In this document: piece after piece, positions 16,058 through 22,489 of the stretch
How the letters are laid out: every line of letters begins with the position of its first letter
Numbering within the stretch: position 1 is the first letter of the stretch
Source of the DNA: Desulfobacterales bacterium
GTDB lineage: Bacteria > Desulfobacterota > Desulfobacteria > Desulfobacterales > UBA5616
Reading direction: 5' to 3'
DNA: 22,489 nucleotides
Assembly (NCBI GenBank): GCA_046483495.1
Contig: JAWODC010000032.1
Span: 1 to 22,489 of the forward strand
Position numbers and translations under genes: made by a program
Notes under the pieces: generated by a model
Database searches by the model: none
What the model saw: the letters and a program-made list of their open reading frames with translations, nothing else
What the model was told of the DNA's origin: nothing

Positions 16058-16300
16058 CGGTTTTTCCTTTCTTTATTTGAAGCGTGATCCGTTCCGATGT
16101 GGGATACGGTATTTTCCTCACTGCCGGCGTTGAAATCGGGCGGCGTTACACGTTTTAACTTGCCGTAACTGCGATTGCAAGGGCTTTATCCTTAAAATAA
16201 TGGGTTGACGAAAACGGCTTTTTTCCTGAATATGATCTTCACAGATTCATGGTATTTCATGCGATACCCGCAAAAACCCGGACCGAAAAGGACTTATCCA

Positions 16301-18418
16301 ATGCCCATCGAAAAAATACCCACGTTCTGCCGCGTCTGCGAAGCCTCGTGCGGACTCGTAGCTGAGCGGGAAAATAACACCATTTTATCCCTTCGACCGG
16401 ATAAAACCCATCCCGTAACGCAAGGCTATGCGTGTCCTAAAGGGATTCTGGCCCTTGACATGCACCGGGACGAAGACCGTTTGAATGTTCCATGGAAACG
16501 GACCAACAGCCGGAAAGAGGAATTGGGTGATTTCGACGGAATCGACTGGGATGCGGCGGCACAGGATATCGGTCTTCGGCTGCAGCACATTATCGACACC
16601 TATGGAACCGACGCCGTGGGGATGTACATCGGCAATCCCACCGCATTCAACTCCCTTCTGGGCCCGGCTATCGGCTTGTTTGCCCGAAAAATCGGCTGCA
16701 GCCGGACATTCAGCTCCGGGACACAGGACTGCACCAATAAATTCGCTGCGACAGAGGCGGTTTTCGGTACGGCCACGCTGCATCCCATTCCGGACATCGA
16801 AAACACCGACTACCTGTTGATCATCGGCGAGAACCCCAAAATTTCGCGCATGAGTTTTATTGCCGTATCGGATCCCATGGCCAAAATTCGGGCGGCCAAA
16901 AAACGGGGCGCCGTTATTCGTTACATTAATCCGCGAAAGATCGAATCCGCCGACGATATGGGAGAGGTTATCCGGATCAAACCGGACACCGATCTGTATT
17001 TTCTTGCCGCCGTGCTGTTCGAGATTGAACGACTGGGGGGCTTCAAAGACGATGAGATCGCGGTACACGGGAAGCACATCGATGGTCTGAAAGGGTTTAT
17101 CCGCCGATATTCGCCCGAACGGGTGGAGAAGATCGTTGGGATTCCGGCGGAGGTGATCCGTGGTATCGCGCGGGAATTCTCCAGCGCGAAAAAAGCGGCC
17201 GTCCACATGTCCACCGGCGTCAACATGGGGCGGCAGGGGACTCTGACCTACTGGCTGGTCCAGATGCTGAGCTTCGCCACCGGAAACCTGGACGCGGAAG
17301 GCGGAAACTACTATGCCCTGGGGTTTTATCCGGCGGCCAAATCCGGCCGCACGAAAACCCATGATCCGTATTTCGAATCCCCCTTCGGCCCGGTGAGGAC
17401 CATCATGGGCAATCTCCCCGGAAACCTGATGGCCGACATGATCGACATGGAAAAAGACCCCATTCGCGCGCTGTTTGTGATATCGGGCAATCCCGTACTG
17501 GCCATTGCCGGGGAGGAAACGATCCGTAAAGCCTTTACAAAACTGGAACTGCTCGTGGTCCTGGATATTTATCGGAATGCCACCGCCGAGATGGCCGATT
17601 TTATCCTGCCCTGCGCGGACATGCTGGAGCGGGCGGATGTGAACACCTGCGGCATCGGCCTTCAATATCGTCCATACGCGCAGTTTACGGAAGCCGTGGT
17701 TCCGCCGCGGTTCGAACGCAAAGAGCAGTGGTGGATCCTGTCCCGGATCGAACAGGCGATGGGCCTTTCGTCCGTACTGGACGATCCGGATTACGACCCA
17801 TGGGGGCGGCTGAATAAAATGCTCTCCCACGTGGATCTATCCACCGAAACGCTGAAAAGTCTTCCGCATGGGACGGCGCTTCTGCCCGAATCCGGCAGGG
17901 GCCGCTTCTACAGCGACTGGCTGCAAACGCCGGACAAAAAGGTGGACTGCCGGCCGGTGGCTTTCGATGAAACGATCCAGACGGCGGAAGTAATCTTCCG
18001 TGAGCTCGAAAACGAGCCCGAAGATCAGTTGAAGCTGATCACATTGAGAAATGCTTTTATGCACAACTCCTGGTATCACAACCTGGAAAAACTCAAAAAG
18101 GGCGAACATCTGTCCAACCCGCTGTATATCAGCCCGGCGGACGCCGAACGCAAAAGGATCCAAAACGGCGGCAAGGTCCGCATGTACAACCAATGGGGCA
18201 GCATCGAAGCAGTCGTAAGAATTGACGACCGTCTTCGAGAGGGCGTTGTCTGCATGGCCCACGGCTGGGGAAACCAGAAAACCCCGGGCATGCAAGTCGC
18301 CCGAAAATACCCGGGGGTAAATGTCAACCGCCTGCTCCCCCACGGGCCGGGCAGCTACGAAAAGATCAGCAACCAGGCCCACATGACCGGCATCCCGGTA
18401 TGGATCGATAAAATTTAA
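16301..18418 (+). CDS. Molybdopterin-dependent oxidoreductase (DMSO reductase superfamily, uncharacterised subfamily)
   Basis: N-terminal CRVCEASCG...ACPKG 4Fe-4S motif, YIGNP, IIGENP, GNP, DIYRNATAEMADFILP, and C-terminal MGD-binding domain (HNSW, HGWG). No twin-arginine signal. Confidence 0.92.
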   Translation: MPIEKIPTFCRVCEASCGLVAERENNTILSLRPDKTHPVTQGYACPKGILALDMHRDEDRLNVPWKRTNSRKEELGDFDGIDWDAAAQDIGLRLQHIIDTYGTDAVGMYIGNPTAFNSLLGPAIGLFARKIGCSRTFSSGTQDCTNKFAATEAVFGTATLHPIPDIENTDYLLIIGENPKISRMSFIAVSDPMAKIRAAKKRGAVIRYINPRKIESADDMGEVIRIKPDTDLYFLAAVLFEIERLGGFKDDEIAVHGKHIDGLKGFIRRYSPERVEKIVGIPAEVIRGIAREFSSAKKAAVHMSTGVNMGRQGTLTYWLVQMLSFATGNLDAEGGNYYALGFYPAAKSGRTKTHDPYFESPFGPVRTIMGNLPGNLMADMIDMEKDPIRALFVISGNPVLAIAGEETIRKAFTKLELLVVLDIYRNATAEMADFILPCADMLERADVNTCGIGLQYRPYAQFTEAVVPPRFERKEQWWILSRIEQAMGLSSVLDDPDYDPWGRLNKMLSHVDLSTETLKSLPHGTALLPESGRGRFYSDWLQTPDKKVDCRPVAFDETIQTAEVIFRELENEPEDQLKLITLRNAFMHNSWYHNLEKLKKGEHLSNPLYISPADAERKRIQNGGKVRMYNQWGSIEAVVRIDDRLREGVVCMAHGWGNQKTPGMQVARKYPGVNVNRLLPHGPGSYEKISNQAHMTGIPVWIDKI

Positions 18419-18419
18419 A

Positions 18420-18568
18420 ATCGAAATCGAAACGGAAATCGAAATCGCTATCGGGATCGGGTATTGATATTACGTAAACGAGTAGTAATAATCAGCCGCC
18501 GAAATCGAAACAGAAGCATAGCAATCGAAAGTAAAAATAAAGAAAAAAAATTCGATACCGATCCCGAT
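18420..18568. repeat. Degenerate ATCGNN hexamer tandem repeat with an inverted arm
   Basis: ATCGAA ATCGAA ACGGAA ATCGAA ATCGCT ATCGGG ATCGGG (18420-18461) and the reverse-oriented TTCGAT ACCGAT CCCGAT (18551-18568). Confidence 0.8.
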
Positions 18569-18644
18569 GGAAAACCGAAAAGATGGAAGAGAGAAGATTT
18601 GTACGAGAAAAACGTTCAATAAAACCGTGAAAAAGGAATCGAAT

Positions 18645-19742
18645 ATGGAAAAACTGACACGAATCGTATTGGAATATCCTATTCTGGAAGGCGCCTTCAA
18701 ATCCGGCATTGCAACCAAAAGAACGCTTGCCGGGGGGCCGCCATCGGCGGATTTATCGTCTGTGATGCCCGGCGCCCGATCCGCGGTTGTCTTTGCCGTT
18801 GCCCTTGACCAGAAGACCATCCCCGGATACCTGGGTAAAAAAGACCGCCTCTCCTATGAGCGCGAGTATAACAAAGTGAACAGTATCGCAAGCGGCATCG
18901 CTGTAAAAATCGCCAACAACCTGTCACAGCGCGGATACCCTGCCGTTCCGCTTGCAGCCAACGATGTGTACCGGGATGATACCCCGAATGGACGGTTCGA
19001 CATGCTTCCACCGATCAGTCTTCGATACCTGGCGGTCGCTTCCGGTGTTGCCTCTTTCGGGTGGTCCGGCAATGTCATCGACCGGGAATACGGCGCATGC
19101 ATTATTCTCGGCGGCGTGGTGACCCATGCTGAACTCGTGCCGACGGATCCATTGGACCCGGATGAAAATTACTGTGACGAATGCCGGTTGTGTTCCGGCG
19201 TATGCGCGTCGGGTCTGATGCATCCCACGAAAATGACCGGGGTGAGATTAGGAAATAAGGATTTTACCTATGCTGCCCGGCGGACCTACATGAGATGCCA
19301 ATATGTGTGCGGGGGTTATGCGGGACTTCATCGGTCCGGAAAATGGTCGACCTGGTCGCCGTCGCGATTTCCGATTCCGGATGACGATGAAGCATTTCTG
19401 CCGCTCTTGATGGCCGCAGGCGCTCTATACGGACGGCGTCCCGAAGGGGAGGGGGGACGGTACCACTCCATGATGGACGACAAATTGTACACCACCTGCG
19501 GCAATTGCCAGATCGTCTGTGTCCCGGATAAAGATGAGCGCAAACGCCGCTACAATCTTCTGGCCAAAGGGGGTCTGGTACTGCAGCACCCGGACGGGTC
19601 GCTGGAAGTGGTTCCCCCGGACGAAGCCGAAGAAAAGCTGTCCGCCATGCCGCCGGAGCATCGGGCTTTGTATGATGGAGATCTTGCCGATGCCCCAATC
19701 CCGGCCGAAATTCAGGAAGCGGCCGGCCGTTATGTGAAATAA
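18645..19742 (+). CDS. QueG/reductive-dehalogenase-like Fe-S protein (probably cobalamin-dependent)
   Basis: MPGARSAVVFAV, ISLRYLAVASGVASFGWSGN, YCDECRLCSGVCASG, RCQYVC, TCGNCQIVC. ATG 18645 follows AAGGA. Confidence 0.8.
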   Translation: MEKLTRIVLEYPILEGAFKSGIATKRTLAGGPPSADLSSVMPGARSAVVFAVALDQKTIPGYLGKKDRLSYEREYNKVNSIASGIAVKIANNLSQRGYPAVPLAANDVYRDDTPNGRFDMLPPISLRYLAVASGVASFGWSGNVIDREYGACIILGGVVTHAELVPTDPLDPDENYCDECRLCSGVCASGLMHPTKMTGVRLGNKDFTYAARRTYMRCQYVCGGYAGLHRSGKWSTWSPSRFPIPDDDEAFLPLLMAAGALYGRRPEGEGGRYHSMMDDKLYTTCGNCQIVCVPDKDERKRRYNLLAKGGLVLQHPDGSLEVVPPDEAEEKLSAMPPEHRALYDGDLADAPIPAEIQEAAGRYVK

Positions 19743-19761
19743 GGATGATCTCGAACAGGGA

Positions 19762-19780
19762 CGCAGAGGCGCAGAGAGCG
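19762..19780 (+). repeat. Short CGCAGAG tandem repeat element
   Basis: CGCAGAG-G-CGCAGAG-AGCG directly after the QueG-like gene; degenerate relative at 22003-22030. Confidence 0.5.
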
Positions 19781-19880
19781 ACGGAAAAACGCAGCCGGAA
19801 TGATTGATACCCTGCATTCCAGTGAGTCGATTCCCAGGTTGCGAGTCGTCCTTTATTGGGCGACCCTCAGCGGAAAAAAT

Positions 19881-20684
19881 ATGAAATTCAACATCTATAA
19901 CAGGTTCGCAATAAAAATAATCCGCAAAGATAACCGTTGGCTTGCATTTCGCACAGGCGTCGGGGCCCGTGTACCGGTCGAGGATCTGGTTGTCCCCGCC
20001 GAGCTTTCGGAATCCGAATTGATCCCTTTTCTCGATGATATGTATCACGAGTTGGCGATCCCCGGCCGATCGATTGAACAGTTGGACGATAACGGCACGG
20101 ATTCGGATCTGAACGGGTTGATCCGCCTTGCCCTCTCATCCGGAGCAAGTGAGGCAAAGATCATTTCCCCGTATGATATTCCGGTCGATGAGCGTCTGGC
20201 GGAATTTTGCAATCCGTCTCAATGCGAAAGTTACGGCCTGTCTCCGAGCTGCCCCCCGCACGTTTCCGGCCCGTCCGGGTTTCGCATACTGCAGCAAAAT
20301 GCCTTGTTTGCCCTGGTCTTGCGAATAGCGGTCCCCTCGTCGGCTCTGTTTTCCGCTGAACGCAGAGAAGTATTCAGTCTGCTGCATGAATCCACGGCGG
20401 GAATCGAACAGACCGCCGCAGAAATGGGCTATCCCGCGTCAAAGGCCTTTGCCGGTGGTTCGTGCAAGAAGATTTTCTGCAATGATCATCCTGTCTGCCG
20501 CGTATTGTCGGAAGGCGGACGATGCCGCTATTCACAGCACGCCCGGCCTTCCATGTCCGGTTTCGGTATCGATGTTTCCGAACTGATGACGATTTGCGGT
20601 TGGCCTTCGAATATCGATATCCATGCGCCGGAAGCAAAATCCGATCCCATGTCATGGGTGGCGGGGCTCGTTCTTATCGGATGA
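19881..20684 (+). CDS. DUF2284 metal-binding protein with an extra ~70-aa N-terminal domain
   Basis: C-terminal part: C...CESYGLSPSCPPH, AGGSCKKIFC...C...CRY...ARPSMSGFGIDV. N-terminal part MKFNIYNRFAIKIIRKDNRWLAFR...FLDDMYHE looks like a separate small domain. Confidence 0.8.
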   Translation: MKFNIYNRFAIKIIRKDNRWLAFRTGVGARVPVEDLVVPAELSESELIPFLDDMYHELAIPGRSIEQLDDNGTDSDLNGLIRLALSSGASEAKIISPYDIPVDERLAEFCNPSQCESYGLSPSCPPHVSGPSGFRILQQNALFALVLRIAVPSSALFSAERREVFSLLHESTAGIEQTAAEMGYPASKAFAGGSCKKIFCNDHPVCRVLSEGGRCRYSQHARPSMSGFGIDVSELMTICGWPSNIDIHAPEAKSDPMSWVAGLVLIG

Positions 20685-21851: not shown

Positions 21852-21911
21852 GGCATGAGCCTGTCGTCGTACTGTAGTGGATCGCCCATTAAAGGGAGAC
21901 CCCAAGTCCGG

Positions 21912-21984
21912 ATATCAATGTCCATTCCCCGGAAGCAAAAGCCTGCCCTATGTCATGGGCAGCGGGTCTGATTCTTATCGTTGA
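21912..21984 (+). pseudogene. Remnant duplicate of the last ~23 codons of the DUF2284 gene
   Basis: Ungapped hand alignment of 21912-21980 to 20611-20679 gives 55/69 identities. Translation DINVHSPEAKACPMSWAAGLILI versus NIDIHAPEAKSDPMSWVAGLVLI. Confidence 0.85.
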
Positions 21985-22030: not shown

Positions 22031-22105
22031 AATGAAGGCAGTTGAACATGTACAGAACCGCGAGAAAAAAATTCTTTCCAATAAAGCCTGTCGAGAGAGG
22101 AAGAT

Positions 22106-22258
22106 ATGGGAAAACGCCCTTCCATTAGTGATTTCCTGACGAATCTAAACCAGCCAATGCCGATGAGAGAGAAATCGAGGAAATTGGTTACAAACCTTTG
22201 GCGGCGGGTGGTATTGAGGCAGAATTGCTGCGGAAATCCAGGAGAGCCGGGGTGTTGA
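22106..22258 (+). CDS. Small Cys-rich protein (50 aa) missed by the ORF track; possible selenoprotein
   Basis: GAGAGGAAG RBS, then MGKRPSISDFLTNLNQPMPMREKSRKLVTNLWRRVVLRQNCCGNPGEPGC followed by TGA. Confidence 0.75.
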   Translation: MGKRPSISDFLTNLNQPMPMREKSRKLVTNLWRRVVLRQNCCGNPGEPGC

Positions 22259-22271
22259 AAATCGGAGACGG

Positions 22272-22286
22272 CATCCGGGTCGGATG
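22272..22286 (+). promoter_or_regulatory. SECIS-like hairpin downstream of the TGA
   Basis: CATCCG-GGT-CGGATG. GGUC lies at +23..+26 counting the U of UGA as +1; E. coli fdhF has GGUC at +22..+25. Confidence 0.35.
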
Positions 22287-22331
22287 AAGAGGGTCATCGG
22301 CACGATTAAACCCCATCACCCCGATGGTTCT

Positions 22332-22353
22332 CGTAGGGGCGAAAAATTTTTCG
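22332..22353 (+). repeat. Truncated GTAG-type REP palindrome
   Basis: CGTAGGGGCGAAAAATTTTTCG; the closing arm CCCCTACG needed to complete the palindrome is absent. Confidence 0.65.
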
Positions 22354-22354
22354 G

Positions 22355-22489
22355 TACAGTGAAGAGCTCACTGGCACTTCATCTGATGATACTATTGATG
22401 GTAAAGGTGGTAGTGATAAAATTGATGGACAAGGTGGAACTGATACTGCTGTTTTCTTTGACTCTAAGAGTTATTTTAATGTAATGACC
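22355..22489 (+). pseudogene. Internal fragment of an RTX-type Ca2+-binding repeat protein, running off the window
   Basis: Frame of 22361 reads EELTGTSSDDTIDGKGGSDKIDGQGGTDTAVFFDS. AT-rich codons, in-frame TAG at 22334-22336, no ATG/GTG start. Confidence 0.7.

Follow-up and report, generated by a model that had tools for sequence, protein, structure and literature searches.

Several described selenoproteins, some with selenocysteine (Sec) directly after cysteine, provide the closest points of reference for the gene considered here. The KCU-star/DUF466 (YbdD/YjiX) selenoprotein (NF033934) is very small, carries a C-terminal or near-terminal Cys-Sec (CU) pair and has Cys-Cys counterparts. SaoC, SaoL, SaoB and HgcA, in the available part of the account by Haft and Gwadz (bioRxiv 10.1101/2022.07.06.499078), combine a vicinal CU and a Cys-packed site, proposed as a heavy-metal ligand, with truncation in databases; the same part of that account describes CU dipeptides as rare and as concentrated in proteins linked to heavy metals, a point its authors offer as speculation. 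Mammalian thioredoxin reductase bears a Gly-Cys-Sec-Gly arm on a flexible C-terminal segment (PMC10779653, available part), and the accessible portion of a 2026 catalogue (PMC13188914) lists predicted bacterial selenoproteins with Gly/Pro-rich or CC motifs, among them TsoC (NEPxGxxU, NF045708), TsoX (HSGNPxU, NF045809) and a CC/Se motif protein (NF041239). Against this background we describe what is very probably, judging from comparative sequence evidence, a new family of micro-selenoproteins from bacteria, decoded through the SECIS mechanism already known.

The gene and its locus

The window, meaning the whole stretch of DNA analysed (22,489 nucleotides), is the entire contig C1 of host genome G000, which is 96.7% complete. 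A preliminary description of this DNA had reported a 50-codon open reading frame (ORF) from an ATG at 22106 behind a ribosome-binding site (RBS), a C-terminal CCGNPGEPGC followed by TGA at 22256-22258, a perfect 6-bp hairpin with a GGU loop beginning 13 nt past that TGA, and a frame open to a TAA at 22307-22309 (KSETASGSDEEGHRHD); all are present as claimed, the hairpin stem being CATCCG/CGGATG around GGT. The features are:

22096-22100, forward strand: Shine-Dalgarno-like AGAGG, from the sequence, 5 nt upstream of the ATG at 22106
22106-22309, forward strand: full coding sequence, 67 aa if the TGA is Sec (Sec51); database versions end at residue 50
22124-22216, forward strand: predicted two-helix body, residues 7-14 and 20-37 (AlphaFold2 model, charge, hydrophobic moment)
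22226-22258, forward strand: motif CCG[HN]xG[EQ]PGC-U, vicinal Cys-Cys and Cys-Sec pairs with a fixed 7-residue Gly/Pro loop between them
22256-22258, forward strand: in-frame TGA, probable selenocysteine codon (homolog codon counts, Cys homologs)
22259-22309, forward strand: 16-residue post-Sec tail carrying the SECIS and, in the window copy, two His; true stop TAA 22307-22309
22272-22286, forward strand: hairpin resembling a bacterial SECIS, with a stem of 6 bp and its GGU loop 19 nt past the UGA

A promoter and terminator scan returned signals at shuffle level only, and an Rfam search chance matches only. A 158-nt contig from one metatranscriptome (depth 3.8) matches 22088-22226 exactly; it ends short of the TGA and could be DNA carry-over, and is therefore not counted as RNA evidence. 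The contig-end stretch 22355-22489, at 37% GC in a window of 53%, encodes serralysin/RTX-type Gly-Asp repeats. Run X1 has these 135 bases with another sequence on their 5' side, so the stretch probably comes from a different organism and was joined on as a chimera; the suspected join begins 46 nt past the true stop of the gene and leaves the finding unaffected. Positions 22333-22353 hold one arm of a REP-like inverted repeat, the second arm being cut at the suspected join, and three further exact-core copies, each with both arms, lie in the genome (C3, C29, C45).

A conserved and widespread family

A search with the 50-aa peptide returned 63 homologs at 66-81% identity, and a family profile search returned 254 clusters at 50% identity with E values up to 0.001, 150 of them itemised. 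Mean variability at codon positions 1, 2 and 3 is 0.17, 0.09 and 0.45, and sequence comparison shows the ORF to be a real conserved gene. C41, C42, G49 and C50 are invariant in 103 diverse members, the 10-residue motif spacing is kept in 128 of the 128 members matching the search pattern, and N13, P19, K23 and N30 are conserved on the helices. The named database entries are all 'hypothetical protein', except for two automatic JGI labels.

The family occurs, one copy each, in 35 of 301 genomes from the window's phylum, in 29 of 301 Chloroflexota genomes and in 64 of 301 Actinomycetota genomes, where two weak matches lacked a stop; it is not specific to sulfate reducers and is common in Chloroflexota and Actinomycetota. 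The gene was not found in the five closest relatives, G001-G005 (75-98% complete), of which G002 has the upstream hydrolase followed by a different gene. A weak match in G003 (L201) was rejected as an off-frame chance match, and viral contigs gave 3 pattern matches, 1 relative and no locus.

Among the distant members (P0064-P0207), 27 of 128 start with Met-Cys, a possible extra ligand, and some carry a His-rich stretch N-terminally instead. A further group (P0003, P0004, P0056, P0058-P0062, P0064, P0131, P0136) reads past the motif with Gly or Trp, or has a frameshift inside the CC codons; these aberrant forms probably reflect errors in sequencing or gene calls made under the wrong code.

The codon after the motif

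With search patterns that excluded the stop codon, the codon following GEPGC was TGA in all 137 close loci (55 from genomes, the best 80 of 244 from metagenomes, the window itself and one relative; L057 has an upstream frameshift). The 56 more distant loci gave TGA in 53 and TGC in 3, all three of the latter genome loci, and the 29 actinobacterial loci gave TGA throughout, so that among loci read as DNA the CC-x7-C motif is followed by TGA in 219 of 222, by TGC in 3 and by TAA or TAG in none, counts that are not independent since the loci are related. Ordinary long ORFs stop at TGA in 1220 of 2910 cases (42%) in G000 and in 205 of 472 from the homolog loci. Redundancy among the close loci leaves 93 of the 133 with enough flank below 90% identity, and the structure tests used those 93. 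The base 3' of the TGA is never T in these 93, in the 53 or in the 29, as against 371 of the 1220 ordinary TGA stops of the genome; UGA followed by U is a strong termination context.

Eight homologs carry Cys at the Sec position (P0085, P0135, P0145, P0148, P0188, L145, L146 and L164). Only 9 of 128 distant database representatives continue past PGC, with Cys in 5, Trp in 3 and Gln in 1, and the three Trp readings at the motif codon are probably gene calls under code 4. A tree of 113 rows, built on only 46 columns, requires 7 changes to account for the eight Cys forms, and well-supported branches force at least 5 of these; the distribution indicates repeated Sec/Cys exchange, most simply as Sec-to-Cys change. 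A reading of the TGA as Trp or Gly is excluded, since these genomes use TGA as a normal stop. Were the TGA instead an ordinary stop, the product would be a 50-residue peptide with three Cys, and the hairpin a terminator or stability element. The database entries agree with such a reading, 119 of the 128 distant representatives with the motif terminating exactly at PGC; the want of any TAA or TAG in 222 loci and the Cys substitutions in several lineages speak against it.

The downstream hairpin

By itself the window hairpin is unremarkable, and the case for a SECIS therefore rests on the homologs: its folding energy is -12.4 kcal/mol for 22259-22300, its folding z-scores over five windows run from +0.4 to -1.95, within chance, and 201 of the 1220 ordinary TGA stops in G000 pass a loose SECIS test. 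In the homologs five core pairs are retained in 86-90 of 93 sequences, and double-sided changes number 31 at one stem pair (GC, AU, CG) and 41 at the next outer one. The covariation that a genuine element had been expected to display is found in the 93-sequence alignment, with a score of 0.338 against 0.136 ± 0.011 for shuffled alignments (0 of 500); slid partners do not exceed 0.162. The shuffle values are not p-values, because kinship is left out of account in the control and the window sequence itself supplied the structure. RNAalifold independently places the stem at the same site, with the innermost pair in another register. A stem with a G loop at 16-21 nt is found in 81 of 93 homologs and at 60 of 1220 ordinary TGA stops; at 12-25 nt it is found in 43 of 53 and 28 of 29 distant members against a background of 140 of 1220, and in 1 of the 3 TGC forms. 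The hairpin fits the bacterial SECIS consensus in the available part of PMC13188914. Its fixed spacing, its G/GU loop and its lack of a U-tract argue against a terminator and an ordinary stop.

In many members from the window's phylum (several within L173-L198) the true stop is a second TGA inside the SECIS hairpin, about 9 codons past Sec.

The read-through tail

Past the hairpin, the read-through frame of the 93 close homologs is 38% His, compared with 3.0% and 2.4% in the other two frames; the tail has a median length of 18 aa, at least two His occur in 87 of 93, and the true stops are TGA in 38, TAG in 28 and TAA in 26. Composition of this kind shows the tail to be coding, and an in-frame His-rich tail whose true stops vary freely is at odds with termination at the motif. 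In distant members tails with at least two His are fewer (8 of 53 and 13 of 29), and in 4 of 29 actinobacterial members the tail is only 1-2 residues, the hairpin then lying beyond the true stop; given this variability the tail is optional, and the conserved unit ends at Sec. The His-rich tail is kept in the Cys forms P0085, P0145 and P0188. Four actinobacterial members read PGC-U-M or PGC-U-K and then stop, and two Cys forms read PGC-C-E and then stop.

Selenocysteine machinery in the hosts

The host genome G000 encodes the full set of selA, selB, selC (tRNA-Sec) and selD, the last of which itself contains an in-frame TGA. Across 51 host genomes (those of 49 of the 55 genome loci, G000 and G029), selA is found in 48 and selB over the cut-off in 45. 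The background of Sec machinery is high (228 of 301 and 202 of 301 genomes); TGA-form genomes are enriched over it, 25 of 26 against 203 of 275 and 55 of 62 against 147 of 239, tallies in which kin are not independent and which take in up to four unpublished genomes (G773, G686, G733, G805) on which the result does not depend. Eleven TGA-form genomes are without selA; in eight of them selB or an unambiguous tRNA-Sec is present, another is borderline and the remaining two have nothing. Searches of the TGA-form genomes G734, G076 and G082, which may be incomplete, detected no clear selA, selB or tRNA-Sec, a point in favour of an ordinary stop. Among the Cys-form genomes, G223 has no detectable selA, selB or tRNA-Sec, and the other two have selA.

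In view of the codon, hairpin, tail and machinery evidence, an ordinary stop is exceedingly improbable. The in-frame UGA would instead be recoded, Sec51 being inserted by SelB and Sec-tRNA bound to the hairpin, a reading to which we attach a probability of about 0.97. The proposal of a Cys-Sec mini-protein (...PGCU...), originally made from the window alone, has gained support from the TGA-only stops, the covarying hairpin, the Cys homologs and the host Sec machinery.

Gene neighbourhood and regulation

Among 1275 flanking ORFs no conserved neighbourhood was found: the best real cluster, a molybdopterin oxidoreductase, occurs in 11 of 137 loci, and the top neighbour-ORF cluster is the gene's own antisense ORF. 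Pfam scans of the nearest neighbours (109 of 115 and 92 of 117 scanned) are heterogeneous. Within the window, 16205-20684 encodes an uncharacterised molybdopterin oxidoreductase, an Fe-S protein of QueG/reductive-dehalogenase type and a DUF7661-DUF2284 fusion, none of which reaches an NCBIfam cut-off, and 21911-21979 is a remnant of a DUF2284 gene 3' end (65% identity over 23 aa to the C-terminus of gene 19800-20684); the molybdoenzyme, Fe-S protein, DUF2284 protein and hydrolase are incidental neighbours of the selenoprotein gene.

The preliminary description had offered, as its other branch, a RiPP-like precursor lying next to metalloenzymes. On such a reading the C-terminal Cys/Sec core would be modified by a maturase encoded elsewhere; the helical, leader-like N-terminus before a compact invariant Cys-rich core would suit it, and selenocysteine-containing precursors (selenobacteriocin) are catalogued in the available part of PMC13188914. 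Of the two sets of neighbours scanned, 109 and 92 in number, only 1 and 2 respectively are radical SAM genes, and no maturase, protease or exporter is conserved among them. The gene is single-copy, and its core is invariant while the tail beyond the core varies; typical precursor families are unlike that. Neighbours not being conserved, both the RiPP and the local-metalloenzyme ideas found no support, and we consider a RiPP-like precursor very unlikely.

Many family members have their own RBS and a -10-like box by comparison of upstream sequences, the RBS words AGGAGG and GGAGAA being enriched 5' of homologs, and an upstream k-mer search of about 120 loci recovered RBS and -10-like words only, with no shared operator. 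Leader-peptide control of a fixed gene is not indicated, since downstream genes are often convergent.

Other features of individual loci deserve record. In L150 and L151 the gene begins about 25 nt past an apparent tRNA gene (identified by eye), a typical insertion site, and a heliorhodopsin gene (two loci) or a bacteriorhodopsin-like gene directly adjoins it at L012:8281-9084, L047:7027-7965 and L099:709-1323. A link to mercury methylation was considered and rejected, hgcA being in only 9 of 69 hosts and absent from G000.

Structure and proposed function

The basic and probably helical body described from the window is matched by prediction. An AlphaFold2 model (mean pLDDT 68.7; 74-83 over residues 11-40) has helices at residues 7-14 and 20-37 and an irregular C-terminus, its confidence over the motif being weak (pLDDT about 70, then 55); the second predicted helix is basic (net +5) and moderately amphipathic. 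A first structure model was poor (pLDDT 58.7), and homodimer prediction scored 0.02. With the low-confidence two-helix model the best fold match had Z 3.1, rmsd 2.5 and 38 aligned residues, and Foldseek gave no match at E 0.001; fold searches with so weak a model show neither a known nor a new fold. The PDB sequence search yielded one chance match (E 0.79) and no relative, a search of the ESM Atlas with homolog P0006 found unnamed clusters only, and neither a thioredoxin fold nor a CxxC/CxxU motif was found in the family.

We favour, at a probability of about 0.5 and on the strength of the ligand set, a 67-residue stand-alone protein whose CC-x7-CU loop is a soft-metal binding site. SelB with Sec-tRNA would bind the hairpin and insert Sec at codon 51, and the fixed Gly/Pro loop would then gather three thiolates and one selenolate to chelate a thiophilic ion, for example Cu(I), Hg(II), Cd(II) or Zn(II). 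The protein might serve as a small metal sink or chaperone, with the optional His-rich tail adding low-affinity metal sites and the basic helix docking it on a membrane or a partner; when selenium runs short, translation would end at the UGA and yield a 50-residue form with three Cys. Four points favour soft-metal chelation: the set of ligands stays the same, no catalytic fold was found, tails rich in His turn up repeatedly, and CU motifs, according to Haft and Gwadz, tend to occur in proteins linked to heavy metals. Several points tell against a metal role: metal-resistance neighbours are few and sporadic among 201 (cation efflux in L086, MerR-family in L053, ArsR in L155, heavy-metal ATPase in L156), there is no shared upstream regulator site and no hgcA link, and His tails are not universal.

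The main rival to metal binding is a redox function, in which Cys50-Sec51 would cycle between selenolthiol and selenylsulfide by analogy with the mammalian thioredoxin reductase arm, be recharged by Cys41-Cys42 or a cellular reductase, and reduce peroxides, disulfides or a partner enzyme. The motif ends Gly-Cys-Sec, Sec is retained in nearly all members, and the majority of characterised selenoproteins, according to the available part of PMC13188914, are oxidoreductases. The members ending PGC-U-M or PGC-U-K, with the Cys forms ending PGC-C-E, indicate that Sec can be penultimate, as it is in thioredoxin reductase according to the available part of PMC10779653. In the near-identical loci L147 and L149 the gene lies 63-64 nt upstream, counted from the TGA, of a 488-aa ORF (L147:1702-3165, L149:2-1465), which in L147 is a pyridine nucleotide-disulfide oxidoreductase and a candidate reductase partner in one clade. 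Among the neighbours scanned, however, no reductase is conserved, no catalytic fold was found and the repeated His-rich tails are left unexplained; on balance the redox reading seems rather unlikely.

A small subunit or sensor is less probable still, and we hold it to be unlikely. Its basic helix would bind a partner protein or nucleic acid, the Sec/Cys loop would switch that binding by metal, Fe-S or redox state, and the efficiency of UGA read-through could itself report selenium supply. The conserved helix residues suggest a specific surface, the occurrence of only one copy in each genome across the three phylum samples is consistent with such a role, and the two JGI members are labelled, automatically, 'predicted transcriptional regulator'. 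Against it, no partner gene is conserved, and a fusion search found 4 longer matches among 6663 candidates, none a credible domain fusion and all looking like upstream over-extensions or chimeras.

Returning to soft-metal binding, a more specific version may be put forward tentatively, with rather more doubt than assent: an unrecognised, Sec-dominant micro-selenoprotein in roughly 10-20% of sampled genomes from three phyla could be a bacterial 'seleno-metallothionein' for Cu, Hg or Cd, dedicated as a selenolate-thiolate sink or chaperone, with a fixed three-Cys-one-Sec cage and a full-length form only where selenium is available.

Significance

The recoding mechanism is known; the usual pattern of numerous Cys homologs is reversed here, about 99% of the loci read carrying TGA. 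According to the available part of its description, a deep-Sep call depends on two of the ten best hits being Cys homologs, and with Cys homologs so scarce the family may have been missed for that reason. Its recognition would add selenium use to aerobic soil Actinomycetota and Chloroflexota, besides anaerobes, and would put right the C-termini given in hundreds of database entries. The proteins, with their 51-70 residues, are short enough for synthesis to be feasible, which would permit a direct test of Sec versus Cys in a vicinal CC/CU site, with the natural Cys variants as controls.

Comparison with known selenoproteins

Table 1 of PMC13188914, in the part of that 2026 catalogue available, contains no such family or motif among its 119 prokaryotic selenoprotein families, its HMM-less entries being compared by name and motif only. 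When 66 and 103 members were searched against Pfam and NCBIfam 20.0, no family drew matches from more than 2 of them, the best E value being 0.003 for one member. The families of Haft and Tolstoy 2025 appear in the same table with NCBIfam models, none of which matched. The motif is not in four deep-Sep supplement files, and BSepDB, as far as its available description goes, covers only previously reported families. A literature search produced no description of the family; the supplements of Haft and Tolstoy 2025 and of Deng et al. 2026 could list it.

Mammalian thioredoxin reductase shares with the family a Gly-Cys-Sec motif and, for some members, a penultimate Sec. The resemblance is of motif only, without homology: the family has no FAD or NADPH domain, whereas the reductase is decoded through a eukaryotic SECIS in the 3' UTR and other factors. 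TsoC, TsoX and the CC/Se motif protein are predicted bacterial selenoproteins likewise, but their listed motifs differ, and 0 of 66 and 103 family members match such NCBIfam models. With SaoC, SaoL, SaoB and HgcA the family has in common the vicinal CU; these, in the available part of the published account, are larger domains in conserved operons (SAO, hgcAB), and there is no HMM match between them and the family. The nearest likeness in size and in C-terminal Cys-Sec is KCU-star, to whose DUF466 HMM no family member matched; no CstA was present among the 201 neighbours scanned. KCU-star adjoins CstA-type transporters and ends at CU (K/R-C-U/C), whereas the family described here carries a further CC pair 7 residues before its CU, in most cases extends into a tail, and lacks a fixed neighbour.
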